From a bacterium (GTDB lineage: Bacteria; UBA8248), in the NCBI GenBank assembly GCA_965204535.1, contig CBDBEV010000001.1:992001-1056000 (forward strand): 64,000 nucleotides of DNA, written 5' to 3'. A model generated the notes under the pieces. The model searched no databases and had not been told where the DNA came from. It saw only the letters and a list, made by a program, of their open reading frames with translations. Position numbers and translations under genes: made by a program. Shown here one piece after another: positions 51,633 through 64,000 of this stretch; position 1 is the stretch's first letter, and every line of letters begins with the position of its first letter.

Positions 51633-51985
51633 CACTTCCTCAAAAGAGCCGGCACGAAAAGTATCGGGTCACTCGCCATCGGCGTGATCCATGGTGCAGG
51701 AGCGCCGAAGCACTTCGTTCGTACCGCTATCGTGGAATCTGCCCGTAAAACGCCATTTTCTGGTTTGTTGCGCTCGAATTTATCTTGACTAGCTCAAGGC
51801 GATAACTATATCTTGCAGAAGCGCACATCAAAACAAGATAAGAGAACTTCCAGGAAATAAATTACCTTGTCTGCAACGAGGGGGGACCCACTGGCATGCA
51901 TCCAGCCCACTCCAGCCACTTCGCCCATCGCGCCCGCATCGGGCGGTCGACGAACCGCCTCCCGGCAGAGGCCGTTCGGGAATCC

Positions 51986-54088
51986 ATGCCTCGCTTGTTC
52001 CGCTTGGCGGTCTGCGCGCTGGCCCTTGTCTTCGTCTTGTCGGCTGCGCCCGCGGGCGCGGGGGATTTTACCCACGGCGAACTCGAGGGCAGTCTCGACA
52101 TCACGCTCTCGCACGGCGTCACCCTTCGCGTCGGGGAGCGCGACGAGAGCCTGATCGGCACGACCAACGGAGGCGCGGCGACCTCCGTCAACAGCGACGA
52201 CGGCAACCTCAACTTCGACAGAGGCGTCGTGAGCAACGCGTCGAAGTTCATCGGCGAGCTCGACTTGAACTACCGGAACTTCGGCGCCTTCGCCCGCGTG
52301 CACGGGTTCTTCGACTTCGAGAACGAAAACGGCGACAGGGCGCGGGACGAGCTTTCGCCCGAGGCGAAGGACCTGGTCGGAAAAGACCTCGAAGTGCTCG
52401 ACCTCTACCTCACCGGCTCGTTCGACCTGGGCGGCGCGCCGATCGACCTTCGGCTCGGCAATCACGTGCTCAGCTGGGGCGAGAGCACCTTCATCCAGAA
52501 CAGCATCAACGTCATCAACCCCTTCGACGTGACCAAGCTGAGAACGCCGGGCGCGGAGCTGCGCGACGGGCTCGTGCCGGTTCCGATGGTCTCCGTCTCG
52601 GCCTCGCTGCACGAGAGCCTCTCCGTGGAGGGCTTCTACCAGGTGAAGTGGGAGAAGACCGAGATCGACCCGCCCGGCAGCTTCTTCTCGACGAGCGACT
52701 TCGTCGGCGCGGGCGGGAGGAGAGTGGTATTGGGCTGGGGCAAGATCCCCGACACGGGTCGAGGGTTCGGTCCCGTCACGGCGGCGATCAACGCCGACCT
52801 CCGTGGTTTCCGAATCCCCAGCCCTACGGCGCCGGGTGCCCTGACGCCCCTGCCGCAGAGAGCGCAGCCGGACTTCGACCGTTATTTCCTGAACGTGTTC
52901 CGCAGCGGGGACAACGAACCAGAAGACTCCGGCCAGTGGGGGGTCGCGCTGCGCTACCTCGCCGAGGGCCTCAACAACACCGAATTCGGCGTCTACTTCG
53001 TCAACTACCACAGCCGCCTGCCCGTTTTGAGCGGGCGCACCGGCACCGTGCAGGGGATACAGGACGGCCTCTTTGCAGCGGGAGCGGTTACCGCTGGTTC
53101 CGATACTCCTGCGGACCCGAGTGATGACTCCGCCACGATAAGAGCGATCACCGCTGCGGTCACAACTGCGGTCACAGCGCAAGTTCCGCCCGGTACGCCG
53201 CCGGCGGTCATTCAAAGTCAGGTTGCCAGTGAGACCGCTAGGCAAGTGGGGGAACTGGGCGGCTCCCTCGCCATCGACCGCTACGTGAAGACGGCGAACT
53301 ACTTCGCCGAATACCCCGAAGATATCCAGCTCTTCGGCCTGAGCTTCAACACCGTGCTCGGAACCTCGGGATGGGCGCTGCAGGGAGAACTCTCCTACCG
53401 CATGGACGCGCCCCTGCAGATAGACGACGCCGAAGTGTTCTTCGCGGCCCTGACGCCGCTCACCATCGACCTCGCGACCAGCAGGCCATGCTCGAATGAT
53501 TTCCCCTACTGCCGGAACCAGGTCGGCGTCTTCGGCCCCGAAACCTACGTCCAGGGCTACATCGAGCGCGACGTGAGCCAGATTCAGGCCACGGCCACCA
53601 AGGTGTTCGGCCCCACGCTCGGGGCGGACAGCCTGGCGTTCGTCGCGGAAGCGGCGCTCATGTACGTGCACGACATGCCGGACAAGAGCGAACTCCGCCT
53701 TGAGGGGCCGGGCACGCAGACCAGCGGGGAGCCCTTTCATTCCACGCCGGCGGGCGGGCACGCGGGCCTCCCGGCGGATCCGCTGGATCGGTTCGCGAGC
53801 GCCACCTCCTACGGCTATCGGCTGGCGGCGCGGCTGTCGTATCTCAACGCCATCGGCGCGGTGAACGTCGCGCCGCGCGTCTCGTTCCAGCACGACGTGA
53901 AAGGCACCAGCCCCGGCCCGGGCGGGCCGTTCATAGAGGATCGGATCGCCGTGACCCTCGGGCTGGGCGCGAGCTATCTCAACCGCTGGCATTTCGACGT
54001 GAGCTTCACCATGTTCGGCGGCGCCGGCAGGCACAACCAGGCGAGCGACCGCGACTTCGTCTCCGCCACCGTCAAATACCTGTTCTGA
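51986..54088 (+). CDS. DUF1302 family outer-membrane protein
   Basis: Signal peptide, NSDDGNLNF, SWGESTF, GQWGVALRY, NYHSRLP, DRDFVS...KYLF. Confidence 0.88.
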   Translation: MPRLFRLAVCALALVFVLSAAPAGAGDFTHGELEGSLDITLSHGVTLRVGERDESLIGTTNGGAATSVNSDDGNLNFDRGVVSNASKFIGELDLNYRNFGAFARVHGFFDFENENGDRARDELSPEAKDLVGKDLEVLDLYLTGSFDLGGAPIDLRLGNHVLSWGESTFIQNSINVINPFDVTKLRTPGAELRDGLVPVPMVSVSASLHESLSVEGFYQVKWEKTEIDPPGSFFSTSDFVGAGGRRVVLGWGKIPDTGRGFGPVTAAINADLRGFRIPSPTAPGALTPLPQRAQPDFDRYFLNVFRSGDNEPEDSGQWGVALRYLAEGLNNTEFGVYFVNYHSRLPVLSGRTGTVQGIQDGLFAAGAVTAGSDTPADPSDDSATIRAITAAVTTAVTAQVPPGTPPAVIQSQVASETARQVGELGGSLAIDRYVKTANYFAEYPEDIQLFGLSFNTVLGTSGWALQGELSYRMDAPLQIDDAEVFFAALTPLTIDLATSRPCSNDFPYCRNQVGVFGPETYVQGYIERDVSQIQATATKVFGPTLGADSLAFVAEAALMYVHDMPDKSELRLEGPGTQTSGEPFHSTPAGGHAGLPADPLDRFASATSYGYRLAARLSYLNAIGAVNVAPRVSFQHDVKGTSPGPGGPFIEDRIAVTLGLGASYLNRWHFDVSFTMFGGAGRHNQASDRDFVSATVKYLF

Positions 54089-54117
54089 CCAACAGCGATG
54101 AAAATGGGGTAACCGCC

Positions 54118-55476
54118 ATGAAAACCATCATTTTGAGAGCCATCGTCGCGATGCTTTGCACCCTCGTGGCAACCAGCGCCTCCGCCGCGATTTCCGCCAG
54201 TGAGATCGCCCGGCTCGGCAAGGACCTGACCCCCCTCGGCGCGGAGCGGGCGGGCAACGCCGAAGGCTCCATCCCGGAGTGGAAGGGCGGCGTCACGACC
54301 CCGCCGGCCGGCTACAAGGTGGGCGACCACCATCCCGACCCATACGCCGGTGACAAGCCCCTGTTCACCATCACCCGCGCGAACCTCGACAAATATCGGG
54401 GGAAACTCTCGGCCGGGCTCCAGAAGATGGTGGAGGCCTACCCGACGCTCCGCCTGCCCGTCTACCCGACCCGGCGCAGCGCCGCGTTTCCGAAGCGCAT
54501 CTACGACGCCACCCGGCGCGTCGCCGCCACCGCGAAACTCGCCTCGGGCGGCAGCGGCGTGACGGGCGCTGTGATCGGGGTTCCGTTTCCGGTTCCCAAA
54601 AACGGCGCGCACGTGATCTGGAATCACCTGCTCCGCTACCGGGGCCAGGCCTCCACGCGCGTCATCGGCCAGGCGGCCGTCACCCGGAGCGGCGACTACA
54701 CCCTCGTCCGGCTCGAGGACGCATACGTCGCGCGCTATTCCCTGCCGGGCATGACGGAGGCGAAACTCGACAACCGGATGATCCTCTTCCGCCAGAAGGT
54801 GGCGGCGCCCGCGCGGCTGGCGGGCCGGATCCTGCTGGCCTACGAGACGCTGAACCAGGTCGCCGAGCCGCGCCACGCCTGGGTGTACAACCCCGGCCAG
54901 CGACGGGTGCGCCGCGCGCCGAACATCGCCTACGACAATCCGGGCACCGCCGCGGACGGGCTCAGGACGAGCGATCAGTTCGACATGTTCAACGGCGCGC
55001 TCGACCGCTACGACTGGAAGCTCCTCGGCAAGCGCGAGATGTACGTGCCCTACAACAGCTACAAGCTTCACAGCGACAAAATCACCTTCGCCGACGTTTT
55101 GAAGCCGCTGCACGTCAACCCCGAGTATCTGCGCTATGAGTTGCACCGGGTCTGGGTGGTCGAGGCGACGCTCAAGGAAGGGGCGCGCCACATCTACAAG
55201 AAACGGCGGTTCTACGTGGATGAGGACTCGTGGATGATCCTGCTCTCCGACATCTATGACAACCGGGATCAGCTCTGGCGCGTGTCGGAAGGGCACGTCG
55301 TCAACTATTACGAAAATCCCCTGGTGAGCTATACCCTCGAGGTGCACACCGACCTTCAGGCGGGGCGCTACCTCGCGCTGGGGCTCAACAACGAGTATCC
55401 CATGAACACCTTCTCCACGACCTACTCGGAGAGGAATTTCACTCCGGCGGCGCTGCGCCGCATGGGCAGGAGATGA
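54118..55476 (+). CDS. DUF1329 family periplasmic protein
   Basis: LTP.GAERAGNA.G.IP.W.GG, PFP.P, WVYNPGQRRVRRAP, RYELHRVWVVEATLK. Confidence 0.9.
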   Translation: MKTIILRAIVAMLCTLVATSASAAISASEIARLGKDLTPLGAERAGNAEGSIPEWKGGVTTPPAGYKVGDHHPDPYAGDKPLFTITRANLDKYRGKLSAGLQKMVEAYPTLRLPVYPTRRSAAFPKRIYDATRRVAATAKLASGGSGVTGAVIGVPFPVPKNGAHVIWNHLLRYRGQASTRVIGQAAVTRSGDYTLVRLEDAYVARYSLPGMTEAKLDNRMILFRQKVAAPARLAGRILLAYETLNQVAEPRHAWVYNPGQRRVRRAPNIAYDNPGTAADGLRTSDQFDMFNGALDRYDWKLLGKREMYVPYNSYKLHSDKITFADVLKPLHVNPEYLRYELHRVWVVEATLKEGARHIYKKRRFYVDEDSWMILLSDIYDNRDQLWRVSEGHVVNYYENPLVSYTLEVHTDLQAGRYLALGLNNEYPMNTFSTTYSERNFTPAALRRMGRR

Positions 55477-56447
55477 CGGCGGCGGAATCCGGGGTTTCGG
55501 GAAGACGGCGGCGACGCCTCCTGCCCGCCCTCATCTTCTGTCTGCTGCCCATTGGCGCGGCGAACGCCGAACCGGCCGTTCAGGCCCGGCTCGCGCCCGA
55601 ATCCCTGCTGATTGGCGGAGCGTCCGCAGGTCCGCGCCTGGTGGTGGTGGGCGAGCGCGGCCACGTTCTGGTCTCGGACGACGGCGGCTTGAAGTGGAAG
55701 CAGGCCCGCGTACCTGTCCGCGCCCTGCTGACGGCCGTGCACATGCACGATGCGCGCCTCGGTTGGGCGGTCGGGCACGACGCGCTCATCCTGCGCACCG
55801 AAGACGGCGGAATGACCTGGCGGGTGGTTCACCACGCGCCCCAGGAAGAACGCCCCCTGCTCGACGTCTGGTTCCGCGATGAACGAAACGGCTTCGCCGT
55901 GGGGGCGTACGGCTATTTCCTCGCCACCTCGGACGGCGGCCGCACCTGGAAGCCGCGCACCATCGACAGGGACGATTTCCACCTGAACGCCATCGTTCCC
56001 GCAGGCGCCGGGCGGCTGTTCATCGCCGGGGAAGCGGGCGCGATCTACCGAAGCGACGACGACGGCTCCACCTGGCGCAAGCTCTCCTCGCCCTATGCCG
56101 GTTCGTGGTTCGGTGCGCTCGCGCTCGATGCGGACAGGCTGCTGCTGTTCGGCTTGAGAGGCAGGATGTATCGCTCAGACGACGGGGGTGAGAGCTGGAC
56201 GCGCGTTCGCACGCGGACGAAGGCGACCCTCACCGGAGCGATCCGGATAAAACCCGGTCTCCTGCTCGTCACCGGCCTTGAGGGCGCACTGCTCGTCAGC
56301 CGCGACGGCGGGCGCAGCGTATCGACCGATCCGAAGTTCAGACCCCTGACCTCCCGCCTGGGAATCTCCAAAGCGCTCGCGCTTTCAGGCGGCCGGGTGC
56401 TGCTGCTCGGCGAGTTCGGGGTCAGGCGCCTGCCCGGGGCCCGATAG
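55473..56447 (+). CDS. YCF48/BNR-repeat protein
   Basis: Repeated S/T-x-DGG-x-(T/S/K)W Asp-boxes, VGERG, AVGHD. Confidence 0.9.
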   Translation: MTAAESGVSGRRRRRLLPALIFCLLPIGAANAEPAVQARLAPESLLIGGASAGPRLVVVGERGHVLVSDDGGLKWKQARVPVRALLTAVHMHDARLGWAVGHDALILRTEDGGMTWRVVHHAPQEERPLLDVWFRDERNGFAVGAYGYFLATSDGGRTWKPRTIDRDDFHLNAIVPAGAGRLFIAGEAGAIYRSDDDGSTWRKLSSPYAGSWFGALALDADRLLLFGLRGRMYRSDDGGESWTRVRTRTKATLTGAIRIKPGLLLVTGLEGALLVSRDGGRSVSTDPKFRPLTSRLGISKALALSGGRVLLLGEFGVRRLPGAR

Positions 56448-56457
56448 GCGCATTCCC

Positions 56458-58806
56458 ATGCCGGACGCCTCCGCTTCTCCTGAGAATTCTTCCGTAACGG
56501 CCCGGCTCGAGCGCGCGCTGTTCTCGCACCGCAAGCGGGTGCTCGCGGCGTTTCTCATCGTCACGCTGGCGATGGCCTGGCTGGCGGCGGGGCTGCGCGT
56601 CGATGCGGGCTTCACCAAGCTGATTCCGCTCGAACACGAGTACATGCGCACCTTCGTCAAGCACCGCGCCGCTTTCGGCGGGGCGGACCGCGTGGCGGTG
56701 GCGCTCGTCGCGCGGAAGGGCGACATCTTCACGCCGGAGTTCTTCGCCCTGCTCCAGAAGGTGAACGACGCCGTATTCTTCCTGCCGGGCGTCGACCGCA
56801 CCCAGGTCTATTCGGTGGTGACGCCGAACGTGCGCTACAACGAGGTGGTCGAGGACGGCATCGTCGCGGGCAACGTGCTGCCCGCGGACTTCAAGCCGAC
56901 CAGAGCCGGCCTCGCGCGGGTGCGCGAGAACATCATCAAGGCGGGAATCGTGGGCCGGCTGGTGGCGAACGATTTCTCGGGCGCGCTCGTGAGCGCGAGA
57001 CTCCAGGAGTTCCATCCGAACACCGGGGAGCGGCTCGATTATCTCGAAGTCGCGCGCGCGCTCGAGGTCATCCGCCGCGACGCAGAAGCCGGCGGCGTCG
57101 CGAAAGTCCACATCATCGGGTTCGCCAAGGTCGTGGGCGAAATCGCGGACGGCGCGGCCCAGGTGCTGCTCTTCTTCGGCCTCGCCGTCGTGATCACCGC
57201 CCTTTTCGTGTACGCCTACACCCGATCGGTCCGCCTCACGGCGATGCCGCTGGCGTGCTCGCTCGTCGCGGTGGTGTGGCAACTCGGCGCGCTCACGGCT
57301 CTCGGCTTCGGCGTCGACCCGATGTCGATCCTGGTGCCGTTTCTGGTGTTCGCCATCGGGGTGAGCCACGGGGTGCAGATGGTGAACGCGGTGGGGGCCG
57401 AAGGGGGCGGCGGCGTCCGCGCCGCGCGGGCGAGCTTTCGCCGCCTGCTGCTGCCGGGTTCGGTGGCGCTGGCCTCGGACGCCATCGGCTTCGTGGCCAT
57501 CGCGCTCATCCCCGTGCGCGTCATCCAGGAGATCGCCGTCACCGCCAGCCTGGGCGTGGCGGCGATCATCCTCACGAACCTGGGGCTTCTGCCGGTGGCG
57601 CTTTCCTTCCTCAAGCCGGGGGAGGGCGGGGAGCGCGCGGCCTCACCGGGGCTTTTGGCGGGTCTCTGGAAGCGCGCCGCGCGGGCGGCCAGGCCGCGCC
57701 CCGCGGTCGCGACGATAGCCGTCGCCGCCGTCCTGCTCGCTCTCGGCGCGCGCTATGCGCCCGAGGTCCGCGTGGGCGATCAGCACCAGGGCGTGCCGGA
57801 GTTGCGCGCGACTTCCACTTATAACCGCGATACCGCCGCCATCGTCGAGCGCTTCAACATCGGCGTGGACGTGTTGACGGTGATCGTCGAGACCATCTCC
57901 CAGGGGTGCGTCGATTACCGCGTGATGCGCCTCATCGACGAGTTCGAGTGGCGCATGCGGAACGTGGCGGGCGTGCGCTCGGTGGTCGCGCTGCCCGGCA
58001 TCGTCCGCAAGCTGAACGCGGGCTGGAACGAGGGCAGCCTCAAGTGGCGCGCGCTGCCGCGCAACCGCCACGCGCTCGCCGAGTCGGTCTCCCTCGTGCC
58101 GACGAGCACCGGACTCCTGAACGGCGACTGCTCGGCGATGCCGGTGCGCATCTACACCGCCGACCACAAGGCGGAGACCATCCGCCGGGTCGTCTCCGCC
58201 GTCGAGGCGTTCAACCGGGCGGAGCGCGATGAGCGCACCACCTTTCGCCTCGCCTCGGGGAACGTCGGGGTGATGGCGGCGACGAACGAGGAGATAGAGG
58301 CGTCGCAGTTCCCGATCCTGGGCTACGTCTACGCGGCGGTCATCCTGCTCTGCCTGGTCTCGTTCCGCTCCGCCGCGGCGACCGCCTGCATCATCGCGCC
58401 CCTGGCGCTCGTCTCGCTCCTCGCCTACGCGCTGATGGCGTTTCTGGAGATCGGCCTCAAGGTCTCGACGCTTCCCGTGGTGGCCCTGGGGGTCGGCATC
58501 GGCGTGGATTACGGGATATACATCTGCGGGCGGCTTCTCGCCTATATGAGGGAGGGTCTCGATTTCGCCGCCGCCTACGAACGCACCCTCGCCACCACGG
58601 GGGCGGGCGTGGTGCTCACCGGCCTCACGCTGGCGGTGGGGGTGGCGACCTGGATATTCGCGCCGCTCAAGCTCCAGGCCGATATGGGGACGGTGCTCTC
58701 GTTCATGTTCCTCGTCAACATGGTGGGCGCCATCGCGCTCCTGCCCGCCCTGGGCGCGTTTCTGATGCGGGCGAAGAAGGCGAGAGGAGAGCGGGCGGGG
58801 GCGTAG
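56458..58806 (+). CDS. MMPL/RND-family transporter
   Basis: Two TM bundles, FAIGVSHGVQ, GIGVDYGIY; canonical partner of DUF1302/DUF1329/YCF48. Confidence 0.9.
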   Translation: MPDASASPENSSVTARLERALFSHRKRVLAAFLIVTLAMAWLAAGLRVDAGFTKLIPLEHEYMRTFVKHRAAFGGADRVAVALVARKGDIFTPEFFALLQKVNDAVFFLPGVDRTQVYSVVTPNVRYNEVVEDGIVAGNVLPADFKPTRAGLARVRENIIKAGIVGRLVANDFSGALVSARLQEFHPNTGERLDYLEVARALEVIRRDAEAGGVAKVHIIGFAKVVGEIADGAAQVLLFFGLAVVITALFVYAYTRSVRLTAMPLACSLVAVVWQLGALTALGFGVDPMSILVPFLVFAIGVSHGVQMVNAVGAEGGGGVRAARASFRRLLLPGSVALASDAIGFVAIALIPVRVIQEIAVTASLGVAAIILTNLGLLPVALSFLKPGEGGERAASPGLLAGLWKRAARAARPRPAVATIAVAAVLLALGARYAPEVRVGDQHQGVPELRATSTYNRDTAAIVERFNIGVDVLTVIVETISQGCVDYRVMRLIDEFEWRMRNVAGVRSVVALPGIVRKLNAGWNEGSLKWRALPRNRHALAESVSLVPTSTGLLNGDCSAMPVRIYTADHKAETIRRVVSAVEAFNRAERDERTTFRLASGNVGVMAATNEEIEASQFPILGYVYAAVILLCLVSFRSAAATACIIAPLALVSLLAYALMAFLEIGLKVSTLPVVALGVGIGVDYGIYICGRLLAYMREGLDFAAAYERTLATTGAGVVLTGLTLAVGVATWIFAPLKLQADMGTVLSFMFLVNMVGAIALLPALGAFLMRAKKARGERAGA

Positions 58807-59535
58807 GGGATTGTCGAAAAAGCCATCCCTGGTCGGAATGACGAACAAAACCGAATCGCATCCGTAGCGGACAGGCTCCTGCGCCTGTCCGAGGCCCCCG
58901 TGCCTGTCTTGACGAAGGACAACCACGGGAATGGATGTCTTCGGTACGGGCGGCCACGGGGGGCCGCCGCGGGGCGTAGGGACAACCCCCCGTGGTTGTC
59001 CGGGGCCGACGTGTCCGCCCGATTGGCCGGAAAACCAACCCCCCCTACCCCCCCTTGTCAGGGGGGTAAGAAAAAGCAACGCCCGCCAACGAGGGGGTGG
59101 AAGAAAAGCCCCCCTGCGTTGGTTCTTCCTTCATCAGTCAGCAATGACCCCCAAGGTATTTCACTCCCCCTTGAGGGGTCTGTTGAAAAAATCCCGTGGA
59201 GCAATTTTGGTTGAGCGCACGCTTTTGAAGTTCACTCCCCCCTTGAGGGTCTGGCTTCCCGAGGGGAAAGCCAGACCCTCAAGGGGGGAGTGAATCCTCT
59301 CTGCTGAATAACAAACAAGTCTGAAAGGGGGAGTGAATTTAGGATTCTCCCTGGTGGAGGGAATAACCCCCCCTACCCCCCCTTATCAGGGGGGTATGAA
59401 AAAGCAAGACCCCAAAAAAGGATCAACTCCCCCCTCAAAGAAGGAGTGGTTCTTCCTCTTTCAGCGGATGAGTCAAACCCTTATCGGGGGAGGGGTCTTT
59501 CTTACCCCCCTGTCAAGGGGGGGGTAGGGGGGCAG
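58806..59535. repeat. Dense intergenic cluster of palindromic repeats and IS1182-like end fragments
   Basis: GTAGGGACAACCCCCCGTGGTTGTCC, three CCCCCCTACCCCCC(C)TT..CAGGGGGG-type copies, CACTCCCCC(C)TTGAG elements, GGTCTGTTGAAAAA. Confidence 0.75.
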
Positions 59536-59886: not shown

Positions 59887-62589
59887 CTACTGCTGCTTGT
59901 TCGCACCGAACGCGCCGACCATGCGGCCGATGGTGCTGAACTCGGAATAGAAGGTTCCGGTCACCGTGGTCGGGATGTTGCTGCCGTCGCCGTCCGGGGC
60001 GTTTCCGGGCATTTCGTCGTACATCGTACCGCTCCACGTGCCGGACGCCAGCGCCTTGTTGCCGTTGATCGACCAGACCGTGGGGTCATTCGTAGGAGCC
60101 GTGATCGTTCCGCCTGAAGCGCCCAAGGCACCGCGGGCCAGCGCGACGCTCCAGCCCGGATCCTCGGACCCGTCGTTCAGCCGGAAGTTGTCGATCGTGC
60201 CGGTCACGCCGGCGGTCGCGCCGGTCCCGAACGTGGCTTTCAGTTCGGCATCCGCCGTGAAGTGGCCGCCGCTGCCGGTGCCGTCGAGCGGGTTGCTGAT
60301 GGCGAACTTGCCTGCGGCGTTGCCGACATAGGTCGCCGAGCCGGATATTGCGGTAAGGTCGCCGCCGGTGTCGAGATCGCCAGCGGTAGGCTCGACAACC
60401 CCAACGAACGCGCTGGCCGCCTTCGGCACGCCGTCATTGTTCTTCCTCACCCACCAGCCGAAGTACAGGTACTCGGCATCGGGCTGATGCACCATCGCGC
60501 CCGTGTCGGGCTTGAAGTGCCAGGTTCCGGTCAATGCGCTCGGGGCACCGCTACCGTCGTTGGTCGAGGAGCAAGTCCCCGAGCAGCGGTACTCACCCGG
60601 TGCGCCGTCGTAGGTGCCTCGGATGTATACTGCCCTGCTTCTATCGGGAACCGGGTGATTCTGGGTTCCCGAGTGTGTAAAGGCATTCGCCCTTACAAGT
60701 GCGTATTCAGCATCAGTATCGACTAACAGCGAACCAGCATTATCATCGCCTGCCGGTAAAAGGGCGTGTTCTTGGCTGAACGGACGCGACCTCCCGGAGC
60801 CTCGGTTCGTGTAGACCCTGGCTTCGTTGGTGACCCTCGAGGTGCCAGTACCCGAGGTAAGGGCATAGTCCGTACCCGACCAGCCGCCCAACGCTCCGGC
60901 GGAATCGCCGGCCTTGAGAGCCACGGCATCAGGGTCTCCATCGGCGGTGGGAAGCGCTCCCGCGCCTGTCGTGGCATCAATCGAGAGGGTCGAAGTCAGC
61001 GCAGGTGAGCCAATGTTAGTCAGCGGGGTCGTGCCAGCATCGTCTGCTCCCAGCGCCGCGTGCATATCCTTGCCGAGTTTCGCGTTGGCCTTGTCCGCTT
61101 CCTTTTGCTTAGCGGCCATCGCCGCCGTGCGGGACGTCTTGGCAGCGGCTAGCTGCGGCTCGAGCGTGGCGAGCGTTCCCTTCGCGCTGGCAACGTCGGT
61201 ATCGCCCTCGGGGAGATCTTCCGCGCCCTCGATCGCCGCCTTGAGAGCGGCAATCGCCGCGTCCGCAGCAGCAACCTCGCTATCGGTCGAGTCGTCGCTC
61301 ACACCCGCGACCGCATTGCGGGCCATCGTGACGGCATTCGTGATCGCCGTGCGCTGGGCCGTCTGCCGACCGGCGCGGTCCATGCCGGTCTGCGCCGTTC
61401 TCACGGTCTCCGTGGCCGCCCCCAGTTGGGTCTGGTACGCGGCCTTTTCGGAATCGCTCAGGTGGGTCGCCGCCTCCAGCGCCGCCTTGAGCGCGTCAAC
61501 GGCAGCATCGGCCGCGGCGATCTTTGCCGCCGTGTCCAGATCGTCGAGGTCGATGTCGGCAAGGGCCGTGCCGGCTTCCGTCAGCGCCGTGCGCTGCCGG
61601 CCGACATTCCCGGCGAGAACCGTCTCCGCACGGTCCACCTTCCGCCGGGCCACCGTCATGTCGACGGTGGCGTCGAGCTTCTCGGCGTCGGTCAGATTGG
61701 TCGCCGCTTTCAACGCCAGATCAACCCCGGTGATGGCTGCCACGGCCGCATCGATCTGCGCCTCCGTCATCAGGTTGTCGAGGTCGAGAGCGGCAAGGAT
61801 AGCAACGGCATCGGCGAGCGCCGTCTTCTGGGCTGCGGTGTCGAACCTGCCCTGCGCCAGCATCACGGTCCGATCGGCTGTCGCCAGCTCGGTCATGGCC
61901 GCGGTCTTCTCGGCATCGCTCAGCTCCGTCGCCGCGGCCAGCGCCATGCGAAGCGCCTCGATGGCGGCCTGGGCGGCGTCGATCTTCTCCTTTGTCGACA
62001 GATCGGCCAGGTCGATTGCCCGAAGGGCCTCGACGGCACTCGTGAGCGCCGTCGTCTGGGCCGCATGGTCGAGAGTGCTCTGCGCGGCCGCCACGGTTGT
62101 CTCGGCGGCTGTCACCCGCCCCTGATACATCGCCTTGTCGGCGTCGCTCACGTCGGCCGCCGCCGCCAGCGCCGCCTTGAGCGCGGCGATGGCGATTTTC
62201 GCGGCGGCGATGGCATCCGCGTCCGGCAGGTCGGACGTGTCGACATTGCCGGCCGCGTTCGCCAAAGCCATTTTCTGCGCATCGACCCGAGCCATCATGG
62301 CCAGGGCCGCCACGCGCGCGGCGACCTTCGTGTTCAGGTCCTGGAGCTGCGCGCCTGAGATGCCGGCGGCCACCGCCGTGGCGACCGCCGCCTGTGCGGC
62401 TTCCGCCGTCTCGGCCGCCGCGATTGCATCAACCGCCGCCTCATAAGCTGTCGGCATCGCTGGCGGATCCGGGTCCGGCGCAGCAGCGCTGCCGCCGCCG
62501 CCACCGCCGCAGCCGGCCAGCGTCAGCGCGAAGAGCGCCGCCAGCGCGAAAGCGTAAAACTTGTTTATCGATTTCTCTTTGAACATCAT
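59887..62589 (-). CDS. Large surface lipoprotein with five helical repeats and a C-terminal transferrin-binding-protein-like beta-barrel
   Basis: AGGAGG RBS; lipobox LAGC then poly-Gly; YLYFGWW, SATYVG.AAG, FTADAELKA.FG, C-terminal MVGAFGANKQQ. Confidence 0.82.
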   Translation of the reverse strand: MMFKEKSINKFYAFALAALFALTLAGCGGGGGGSAAAPDPDPPAMPTAYEAAVDAIAAAETAEAAQAAVATAVAAGISGAQLQDLNTKVAARVAALAMMARVDAQKMALANAAGNVDTSDLPDADAIAAAKIAIAALKAALAAAADVSDADKAMYQGRVTAAETTVAAAQSTLDHAAQTTALTSAVEALRAIDLADLSTKEKIDAAQAAIEALRMALAAATELSDAEKTAAMTELATADRTVMLAQGRFDTAAQKTALADAVAILAALDLDNLMTEAQIDAAVAAITGVDLALKAATNLTDAEKLDATVDMTVARRKVDRAETVLAGNVGRQRTALTEAGTALADIDLDDLDTAAKIAAADAAVDALKAALEAATHLSDSEKAAYQTQLGAATETVRTAQTGMDRAGRQTAQRTAITNAVTMARNAVAGVSDDSTDSEVAAADAAIAALKAAIEGAEDLPEGDTDVASAKGTLATLEPQLAAAKTSRTAAMAAKQKEADKANAKLGKDMHAALGADDAGTTPLTNIGSPALTSTLSIDATTGAGALPTADGDPDAVALKAGDSAGALGGWSGTDYALTSGTGTSRVTNEARVYTNRGSGRSRPFSQEHALLPAGDDNAGSLLVDTDAEYALVRANAFTHSGTQNHPVPDRSRAVYIRGTYDGAPGEYRCSGTCSSTNDGSGAPSALTGTWHFKPDTGAMVHQPDAEYLYFGWWVRKNNDGVPKAASAFVGVVEPTAGDLDTGGDLTAISGSATYVGNAAGKFAISNPLDGTGSGGHFTADAELKATFGTGATAGVTGTIDNFRLNDGSEDPGWSVALARGALGASGGTITAPTNDPTVWSINGNKALASGTWSGTMYDEMPGNAPDGDGSNIPTTVTGTFYSEFSTIGRMVGAFGANKQQ

Positions 62590-62819
62590 TTAGTGAGTCC
62601 TCCTGAATACACAGTAGAAAAAGGGATCTTCAGTGAATTTCCGGCTTTCTCCGATTAACCTCCTTTCGTCAGCTTTTATTTCGGGCCTTCACAAACTGAT
62701 TCGTATCTCGGGCCGCCTGAAATACGGCGGACTTGAACCCTTTCATGCTCCGGGCCGGTAGTGAGTCTTTCCGCGAGAGGCGGATTCCTGCGGTATGCGT
62801 CCACTTCGAACCCGGGCTG

Positions 62820-62847
62820 GTGACCGCTAATTACTGTTACCGGACCC
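62820..62847. promoter_or_regulatory. Candidate site-specific recombination site A (GTGACCGCTAA-TTACTG-TTACCGGACCC)
   Basis: Arm / 6-bp spacer / arm; core TAATTACTGTTA (62828-62839) is the exact reverse complement of 63007-63018. Confidence 0.6.
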
Positions 62848-62972
62848 CAGAAACCCCGTTTTCCGCCGGAAAACCCGTTTCGGGGCGCATTCGGGCCGCA
62901 AACAAGCGAAAGATGAGCGAAAAAAGACGCAAAATGGCGCCCGAAACCCCTCCGGGGACCCCGGAATTGCGC

Positions 62973-63000
62973 TTGACATGGCCGTGAGAGGTGTTATATT
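62973..63000 (+). promoter_or_regulatory. Sigma70 promoter TTGACA-16-TATATT with extended -10 TG
   Basis: Perfect -35 and near-consensus -10, located between the two inverted sites. Confidence 0.65.
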
Positions 63001-63026
63001 TTCTGATAACAGTAATTATCGGACTC
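62999..63026. promoter_or_regulatory. Candidate site-specific recombination site B (TTTTCTGATAA-CAGTAA-TTATCGGACTC)
   Basis: Arm / 6-bp spacer / arm with spacer inverted relative to site A. Confidence 0.6.
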
Positions 63027-63171
63027 CAGAAAAGCCGTTTCGGTCGGAATCGACCGCCGACGTCATCCCTGCGCGGTTATATATGCGGATGACGGCCCTT
63101 CATGTATCGCCGAACCCCGGAATGACAATGGAAAGCCGCACCTGCGGGTCGTTGCGATTTACGTGGTTTCT

Positions 63172-63230
63172 GTAGGGACAGGCCCCCGTGCCTGTTCCCG
63201 CCAGGGACAACCACGGGGGGTTGTCCCTGC
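63172..63230. repeat. GTAGGGAC-type REP doublet
   Basis: GTAGGGACAGGCCCCCGTGCCTGT...GGGACAACCACGGGGGGTTGTCCCTGC; same family at 30638, 36351 and 58976. Confidence 0.75.
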
Positions 63231-63398
63231 AATCCCACATTCTTCAAGCAGCAAACCGCAATCGCTCCCTCATCGGTCGCGTTCGACCTGCGCGCCTGCG
63301 AACGCCGTATTGCTGCAGTCGTGTCGAATGGAAAGTCGGTTCAGTATGGACTTGAGCGCCTGCTCATCCGGGCGGTGGTTGTTTGTTTCACGTCGCCG

Positions 63399-63417
63399 TG
63401 CTATCATAATGATGGCA
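63399..63417. promoter_or_regulatory. Probable antitoxin operator TGCTATCA-TAA-TGATGGCA
   Basis: Inverted repeat overlapping a CATAAT -10 upstream of the TA pair; half-site matches the FitA-type TGCTATCA. Confidence 0.6.
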
Positions 63418-63452
63418 TTTCTTTCTGAGGAAAAAAGAAAAAGGAGAATGCG

Positions 63453-63713
63453 ATGGCGACGCTCAATGTGCGGCAACTCGACGACGACGTAGTTCGGCGC
63501 CTCAAGCGGCGCGCCGCCGCCAACAACCGTTCCCTGGAAGGCGAGGTGCGCCACATTCTCGAAAACGCGGTCGAAGATGACATGGCAGCGAAACGCGCAT
63601 CCTTCCCGGCTTTGGCCGCACGGTTGCAGCGGGAGACCGAAGGCCGCGCACAAACGCCTTCGGAGGTCCTGATTCGCGAAGATCGCGAACGCGGACATCG
63701 CGTCATCCAATGA
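63453..63713 (+). CDS. Ribbon-helix-helix (Arc/FitA-like) antitoxin
   Basis: MATLNVRQLDDDV..RLK.RAA.NNRSLE.EVR.IL ... SEVLIREDR. Confidence 0.9.
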   Translation: MATLNVRQLDDDVVRRLKRRAAANNRSLEGEVRHILENAVEDDMAAKRASFPALAARLQRETEGRAQTPSEVLIREDRERGHRVIQ

Positions 63714-64000
63714 GTCTGGTGGTCGACGCCAGCGTTGCGGTCAAATGGCTGGTCGCGGAAGAGGATTCGGGATCGGCGAATCGATTGGCGGCGGGCGCCG
63801 AGGATTTGCACGCACCGCGCCTGATGGCCTCGGAGGTGGCCAACACGCTTTGGCGCAAGGCCCGGAGCGGCGAGATAGAACGCGACCGCGCCGGCGTATT
63901 GATGGCCGCTTTAACGGAGATGCCCGTTCGCTGGAACGTCGACGAAACGCTTTGCGCGGACGCGGTTCGTCTCGCGCTGGCGCTCGACAGGCCGGTTTAC
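63710..64000 (+). CDS. PIN-domain VapC/FitB-like toxin (3' truncated by window edge)
   Basis: ATGA overlap; MSLVVDASVAVKW...APRLMASEVANTLWRK...LALALDRPVY. Confidence 0.9.
   Translation, partial: MSLVVDASVAVKWLVAEEDSGSANRLAAGAEDLHAPRLMASEVANTLWRKARSGEIERDRAGVLMAALTEMPVRWNVDETLCADAVRLALALDRPVY

Follow-up and report, generated by a model that had tools for sequence, protein, structure and literature searches.

We report an invertible promoter that very probably turns a predicted surface lipoprotein gene on and off in the 64,000-nucleotide stretch of DNA analysed here, hereafter the window (G000:C2:992001-1056000, where G000 is the source genome). The switch is one of 17 such promoters in this genome and would most likely be flipped in trans by the Cre-like enzyme of sister copies. 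An earlier reading made from the letters of the window (the sequence-only reading) had proposed an invertible promoter, OFF in the assembly, and this is well supported by the existence of both orientations in the family, with breakpoints at the sites. That reading overlooked the 17-member family and the fact that the OFF direction is the direction of the recombinase's own promoter.

The switch at the window locus

The coordinates of the switch and its surroundings are collected in Table 1. The core of the element is a pair of 12-bp exact reverse complements, TAATTACTGTTA at 62828-62839 and TAACAGTAATTA at 63007-63018, which lie 179 bp apart from start to start. None of the other inverted repeats listed for 61500-64000 is longer than this one (28 nt, 82 %). 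Each repeat is part of a site made of two arms around a 6-bp spacer, and the two spacers are inverted relative to each other, all as described by the sequence-only reading. The window copy has the inner-left arm CCGGTAA, a change absent from the other 14 OFF copies.

Table 1. Features of the window switch, its target and its surroundings, with the likely chromosomal dif site (window positions unless a genome position is given)
Feature	Position	Strand	Description
Target gene	59887..62589	-	900-aa predicted lipoprotein; signal peptide with LAGC lipobox (Cys27), Gly linker, Ala-rich repeats, C-terminal all-beta domain
Conserved leader between left site and start codon	62590..62822	-	RBS GGAGGA 62598-62603; second SD-like motif 62658-62665
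Left (gene-side) recombination site, predicted	62823..62853	.	Outer arm ACCGCTAA 62823-62830; spacer TTACTG 62831-62836; inner arm 62837-62853, reading TCCGGTAA toward the spacer (62837-62844, minus strand)
Invertible segment	62831..63015	.	185 bp including both spacers; OFF in assembly; reversed between unchanged flanks in paralogs and one orthologous locus
Predicted sigma-70 promoter	62973..63000	+	-35 TTGACA 62973-62978; extended -10 TG-TATATT 62995-63000; pattern match
Right (distal) recombination site, predicted	63002..63032	.	Inner arm TCTGATAA 63002-63009; spacer CAGTAA 63010-63015; outer arm 63016-63032, reading TCCGATAA toward the spacer (63016-63023, minus strand)
Distal segment	63026..63150	+	Common to 6/7 recombinase-less copies; occupies the place of the Cre-like gene in 8 others
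REP-like palindromic repeat, right cassette edge	63165..63235	.	133 BLAST matches in genome
Likely chromosomal dif	G000:C1:1394747-1394776 (L054)	.	Near GC-skew maximum and KOPS polarity switch

Between the sites lies the predicted promoter TTGACA-16-TATATT, found where it had been reported and pointing away from the lipoprotein gene, whose minus-strand reading frame and start codon were likewise read as described. The promoter scores 11/12 with an extended TG and is the sole promoter-like site in 62300-64000, a region in which shuffled sequences give 0.4 +/- 0.6 such sites; the promoter pattern search returned no minus-strand site there. Judged from its position, transcription would start inside the right recombination site. 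Inversion had been predicted to create a near-perfect long-arm site. The predicted product agrees at 15/17 arm positions, and such sites are real in flipped copies, for example locus L098.

In the ON state the region between the left site and the start codon would form the 5′ UTR of the lipoprotein transcript. Its gene-proximal part (62590-62700, minus strand) is strongly conserved and holds the second SD-like motif and a hairpin followed by a U-run. Rfam gave no match in the leader, the only matches being sub-threshold hairpins outside the switch.

A family of 17 switches with matched spacers

The leader, the inner segment and the distal flank each recur many times in the source genome in BLAST searches. 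By searching G000 for TAA-N6-TTA pairs 120-260 bp apart with a promoter between them, and without demanding that the spacers match, we identified 17 paralogous switch loci with a length of 168-180 bp. A search upstream of paralogous lipoproteins, which the sequence-only reading had suggested, thus returned the same element. At one of the 17 loci contig C1 breaks off exactly within a left switch site; this locus was read by joining the two contig ends, which neighbour each other in genome G002.

The left spacer is the exact reverse complement of the right spacer at 17/17 loci of the source genome, with 13 spacer types. Shuffling the pairing 200,000 times gave at most 11 matches, and the exact calculation gives 4.5e-14, a value that is no true probability since the paralogs are non-independent. 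The whole genome holds 20 TAA-N6-TTA pairs at distances of 50-600 bp; the spacers are inverted in 16 of them, each of which is a switch copy. In other genomes, spacers are matched in 40/41 distinct complete loci, the exception (L100) being a single-base mismatch. This count leaves out L072 (at a contig end), L117 (7-bp spacer), L119 (TAG border) and two G005 loci that have no promoter match. Over all loci 57/58 have matched spacers, and 23 spacer types are found when ON spacers are read in one direction only.

The spacers also change faster than what surrounds them. Among 16 loci, between-locus identity is 62 % in the spacers, compared with 88 % in the inner segment and an average of 95 % in its last 45 nt, the promoter end. 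Spacer changes from the consensus are transitions in 26/27 cases, the spacer differs in 12/15 close paralog pairs, and the arms within one locus do not track each other. Spacers are not unique to a locus: the 13 types of the 17 source-genome loci include 4 shared pairs, and 16 loci of G002 have 8 types. Selection for unique spacers was tested and found no support, the observed diversity being that expected from column shuffling (13 types observed, mode 12). Because spacers are shared between loci and are not over-dispersed, the spacer code is leaky and selection for insulation is unsupported.

The closest relative of the window's inner segment is the copy at C1:492650 (95 % identity), which has the identical spacer, so that the spacer match of the window copy may be inherited. 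All 7 source-genome copies that have no recombinase gene keep matched spacers, of 5 types. A lone hybrid site at G000:C2:561242 (L214) joins a gene-side and a promoter-side arm. It is flanked by the remnant of a leader and by the 3′ region of a lipoprotein gene, and is perhaps a deletion scar.

Both orientations occur in the family

Two of the 17 source-genome copies (C2:567356 and C2:2391245) are flipped toward their gene, that is ON, with the strand change at the spacer. Together with 4/41 loci elsewhere this makes 6/58 ON copies, with breakpoints at the sites. The clearest case is an ortholog pair, L098 of G002 (ON) and C2:2207108 of the source genome (OFF): both flanks are 96 % identical and run in the same direction, and only the 206-nt switch is reversed. 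The spacer is TTGCTG at both sites of L098 and TTGCTA at both sites of C2:2207108. A second pair with syntenic flanks, L091 and C2:2828332, is OFF in both genomes, and here too the spacer changed at both sites (TTACTG versus TTACTA).

Two of the ON copies are without an intact recombinase neighbour, C2:2391245 having a truncated gene and L098 no recombinase match; among the 7 recombinase-less source-genome copies 0/7 are ON. At the window locus, contigs of 4 runs held no strand-change joint, in assemblies where paralogy breaks contigs and rare forms are dropped, and 5 genomes searched held no orthologous cassette for the window copy. Same-locus flipping was also considered at the ON locus C2:567356, where run X2 has two opposite-strand joints at the sites. 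The 10 differences in these joints are those of the OFF paralog C2:1583436, from which the joints derive, and they were therefore not counted. Both orientations are thus established for the family, not for the window copy.

A Cre-like recombinase beside the switches

None of the genome's 42 PF00589 matches falls in the window, in agreement with the earlier remark that no tyrosine recombinase is encoded there. Elsewhere in the family a recombinase gene lies just past the distal site, on the side to which the promoter points when OFF: it is intact in 8/17 copies, internally deleted in 2/17 and missing from 7/17, the window copy included. All 8 adjacent genes are open and keep the R-K-H-R-W-Y residues and all five motifs. 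The two deletion remnants (G000 C1:730200 and C2:2391493) encode 86-101 aa, the stretch between two short motifs that resemble each other having been lost; the switch is ON at one of these loci. A 233-aa HTH_17 (excisionase-like) gene converges on the recombinase at L051:3986-4687 (minus strand) and recurs with many cassettes.

By sequence comparison the adjacent recombinase P0002 qualifies as a Cre-type enzyme. Its best PDB match is Cre (E 6e-13, against 4e-5 for XerA), and it aligns with Cre R173, K201, H289, R292, W315 and Y324, the criterion given in the available part of PMC10250229. Profile scores are far below the cut-offs for XerC (46.7 bits, cut-off 335), XerD (33.1, cut-off 330) and the FimB/FimE-type models (22 and 18 bits, cut-offs 222 and 221). 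In a tree the recombinase stands separate from the host XerC and XerD, at a place where long branches meet. In intact cassettes the predicted target site lies less than 1 kb from the recombinase gene. Measured against the Cre-type pattern of 13-bp half-sites around an 8-bp spacer with at most 2 asymmetries, the right site of the window copy, in its OFF state, is palindromic at 7/13 positions, and the distal site that inversion would form at 11/13, as in ON copies.

The sequence-only reading had taken the sites for dif-like and the enzyme for XerC-like, and this part is not supported, since the switch sites have no XerD-type arm and a Cre-like recombinase lies beside 8/17 copies. The comparison with the chromosomal dif that it called for gave a divided answer. 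The XerC-side arm of the likely dif, GCCGATAA, resembles the switch arms; its second arm, which we take to be of XerD type, occurs in no switch site, the arms of the 15 OFF copies being all of CCG/CTG-ATAA type in four classes. The host XerD gene is at C1:1352004 and an XerC-like gene at C1:116980, neither of them at switches, and the family has 17 dispersed site pairs where Xer/dif has a single terminus site. A contribution of Xer to switching is unlikely on these comparisons. From the adjacency of the genes, the symmetry of the arms and the flipped copies without an intact neighbour, we infer that the Cre-like enzyme acts on the sites, and in trans on the window copy.

Target genes and host

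The window lipoprotein has Ala-rich repeats of ~76-78 aa (228-234 nt) and no Pfam or NCBIfam match. Its fold was predicted from an 80-row alignment (a single-sequence prediction gave pLDDT 35), and the model of residues 521-900 has pLDDT 93.7. The model superposes on hemophilin 7rea with Z 14.8 (rmsd 3.9, 205 aligned) and on fHbp 8bk2 with Z 14.6, and Foldseek matches the domain to HpuA, hemophilin, fHbp and TbpB at E about 1e-4. The genome has a single Slam (PF04575) homolog, at C2:795287 (L242), beside the lipoprotein paralog C2:793617. The predicted fHbp/TbpB-type fold together with the Slam homolog makes display of the window protein at the surface likely. An 'invert_tail' match on a lipoprotein paralog was dismissed (16.7 bits, cut-off 37).

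Predicted exported proteins are faced by 16/17 copies. Paralogous lipoproteins of 540-901 aa, one of them frameshifted, account for 13; of the remaining four copies, three have as targets a further lipoprotein, an RTX-repeat protein and a 1268-aa Calx-beta/cadherin-like protein, and one has no clear target. The frameshift (G000:C2:374847-376855, L055) lies just past the lipobox in a run of Gly codons and may be due to slippage or an assembly error. The host is probably a Nitrospinota sponge symbiont, since the nearest named recombinase records are labelled Nitrospinota and one run is a sponge metagenome.

Cassette edges and occurrence in other genomes

The lipoprotein and its switch form a cassette (about 58780-58970 to 63170), and G011, G012 and G016 have an empty orthologous site in its place. 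The cassette begins and ends in REP-like repeats, not at the recombination sites. The C1-end cassette is absent from G002, where both C1 ends are neighbours, and the majority of the G002 loci are not matched by a locus at the corresponding position of the source genome. At one G002 locus (L090) the flanks map to two source-genome places, each by a cassette or recombinase remnant, which suggests rearrangement at cassettes.

The switch pattern occurs in 11/51 genomes of the class, all of one genus, and a reversed control gave no match. Related recombinases were found at 77 loci in several phyla. A strict paired-site scan of these loci returned pairs in the host genus only, and looser inspection found them also in Latescibacterota and at L117 and L119; the Poribacteria loci inspected had no convincing site pair. 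The same arms recur ~290 bp apart at three loci of Latescibacterota, where the spacers co-vary and a promoter is present, the left inner arm being degenerate. The promoters face a gene that we take to be TonB-dependent-receptor-like, and in the set L130, L131, L132 and L183 all three complete switches point at this receptor-like gene. The Latescibacterota leaders also have extra SD-like motifs, and at L183 a presumably transposase-like ORF lies between site and recombinase. The same switch is found at L119, with a TAG border, and at L117, where it is located 560-750 bp upstream of the recombinase match. In L117 the borders are separated by 7 matched bases, and the protein that the switch faces has a leader of twin-arginine-like type.

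Other relatives (L123, L124, L126 and L147) have a single site just upstream of the recombinase gene, L124 and L126 with the same arms in other phyla. A single site just upstream of the gene is the usual Cre-type layout according to the available part of PMC10250229, and these relatives thus suggest that the switch may have evolved when a second site was acquired.

A proposed mechanism

In the mechanism that we propose, four recombinase monomers would bind the CCGATAA-type arms and cut at the edges of the 6-bp spacer, and the segment would invert only when both spacers match. In tyrosine-recombinase chemistry the spacer becomes a heteroduplex and must match (PMC12282940, available part), so that inversion would be confined to the two ends of one switch. 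In the OFF state the promoter would transcribe the recombinase gene of complete cassettes, and in the ON state it would read across the 240-nt leader and on into the gene for the surface protein; the promoter, which a site overlaps, could be repressed by bound enzyme. After a rare inversion between mismatched spacers, each of the two product strands would have a single spacer type at its two sites, a different type on each strand, and replication of this product would yield daughters with matched spacer pairs. Such events would explain the fast drift of spacers with matching kept. Cells would thereby probably vary their surface in a combinatorial way, few of these genes being on at once.

A broader account is possible, and we offer it tentatively, at somewhat under an even chance. 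The element would be a natural Cre/lox switchboard, in which a lox-like site first overlapped the promoter of a Cre-clade recombinase. With the addition of a second, inverted site this promoter would have turned into a portable ON/OFF cassette, which spread in the genome and captured surface-protein genes. Lox-variant spacers homogenised by flipping would partly insulate the 16-17 switches, giving combinatorial surface variation in sponge symbionts of more than one phylum.

Alternative explanations

A family of real switches could still include a window copy that is a locked relic, block-copied with its matched spacers and leaving its gene silent. The copy has no adjacent recombinase, shares its spacer with its closest paralog, carries an arm change of its own and gave no flipped contig, and no recombinase-less source-genome copy is ON. 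However, every one of those 7 copies keeps matched spacers, in 5 types, L098 is ON as the G002 ortholog of a recombinase-less copy, C2:2391245 is ON with a truncated recombinase, and the 900-aa gene of the window is intact. We consider such a relic improbable. Only about half as probable as the relic is flipping of the segments by host XerC/XerD, or by XerC alone, with the Cre-like genes as passengers. The genome has both Xer genes, and the switch arms are similar to the XerC-side arm of the likely dif, with which the sites have the TAA-N6-TTA core in common. Against this stand the lack of an XerD-type arm in any switch site, the uniform type of both arms, which would suit a homotetramer, the occurrence of these arms at single sites just ahead of related Cre-like genes from other phyla (L124, L126) and in the Latescibacterota switches, and the confinement of the element to one genus, in 11 of the 51 class genomes.

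The mostly differing positions in G000 and G002, the empty orthologous sites of the window and C1-end cassettes and the excisionase-like HTH_17 gene after the recombinase would also suit attachment or resolution sites of a mobile cassette, with promoter inversion a by-product that has no role in surface variation. Yet the sites are internal and inverted, which implies inversion and not excision, the cassette edges are in REP-like repeats, and the inverted part is the promoter alone, with exported proteins of unrelated kinds as the predicted targets of all copies but one; this explanation is very improbable, a shade more so than flipping by Xer. The palindromes are AT-rich dyads, one of which overlaps the predicted transcription start, and might be operators of a Fur-like or other transcription factor, or an RNA hairpin. 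Operators leave the locus-specific inverted spacer match at 57/58 loci unexplained and are contradicted by inversions that end at the sites and by flipped orthologs, and a single transcript would not hold both halves of a hairpin with the promoter between them, so that we give this explanation almost no credence. The trans-acting Cre-like switch thus stays by far our preferred reading.

Relation to known systems and significance

Systems with many switches and a spacer code are already known. In Mycoplasma penetrans many lipoprotein genes of the mpl (P35) family each have an invertible promoter bounded by 12-bp inverted repeats that differ by locus (PMC3047005, available part). The likeness to our family lies in paralogous lipoprotein genes that each have their own invertible promoter, and in a tyrosine recombinase. 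In contrast to the one recombinase described there (MYPE2900), 8 intact and dispersed Cre-like genes travel with the switch here, and the targets are fHbp/TbpB-fold and unrelated exported proteins of a diderm environmental bacterium. The Clostridioides difficile RecV switches (cdi1-6) have two arms around a 6-bp spacer that is common to the ends of a switch and differs between switches (PMC12282940, available part), much as spacers are identical, in inverted form, at both ends of 57/58 loci here. RecV is described there as having no N-terminal binding domain and acting on non-paralogous switches, whereas the switches here are paralogous and promoter-bearing, their spacers are sometimes shared, and concerted change can be traced over 58 loci and their orthologs.

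Cre itself resolves P1 dimers (PMC8138268, available part). The Cre/loxP systems of Jelicic et al. (PMC10250229, available part) are alike in having a palindromic site less than 1 kb upstream of the gene and a 6-bp core within an 8-bp spacer. They differ from the present family, in which two inverted sites about 158-180 bp apart surround a promoter and OFF sites are far less palindromic than loxP. The available main text of PMC10250229 has no occurrence of 'phase variation', and that of PMC11602134 none of 'Nitrospin' or 'sponge'; we also drew on the available parts of PMC11868660 and PMC11260471. In the literature searched we found no paper on a Cre-type invertible-promoter family or on the host, and supplements may hold the loci as unnamed predictions. 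What appears to be new is the Cre-clade version of such a system, in multi-copy cassettes.

The fimS switch (FimB/FimE) and the Bacteroides Mpi/Tsr systems place a promoter on a short invertible segment that controls surface structures, and there too the -10 lies beside one repeat. Unlike in fimS, the OFF promoter here faces the recombinase gene, and the enzyme is far below FimB/FimE-type cut-offs. Xer/dif shares the TAA-N6-TTA core and an arm like the host XerC-side arm, and differs by its XerD arm and its one terminus site, where the present family has 17 dispersed pairs and a dedicated non-Xer recombinase. Slam-dependent lipoproteins (fHbp, TbpB, HpuA, hemophilin) resemble the window protein in lipobox, Gly linker, handle-plus-barrel fold and a Slam homolog in the genome; the window protein differs by 13-20 % identity to them, a long Ala-rich repeat stalk and a Slam gene that is not adjacent.

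If our reading is true, phase variation driven by recombinases would also take in the Cre clade as well as uncultured marine symbionts, in which large paralogous surface-protein families are common; the general principle of many lipoprotein genes each with an invertible promoter was already known. The spacer code has so far been a model proposed for C. difficile RecV; with these 58 loci it can be put to a direct test, as they offer natural matched, single-mismatch and shared-spacer pairs, to which orthologs caught in opposite states add further material. A compact recombinase with 23 natural spacer variants is also a candidate for a new Cre-type tool.

Genes flanking the window cassette

Upstream of the insertion site, 51896-58806 of the window holds a cluster of DUF1302, DUF1329, BNR/YCF48 and MMPL genes. 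At 63453-64000 a FitA-like antitoxin gene (PF22513) overlaps an ORF that starts at 63710 and that we take to be PIN-like; this pair is present at the empty site of relatives, and so lies outside the cassette.
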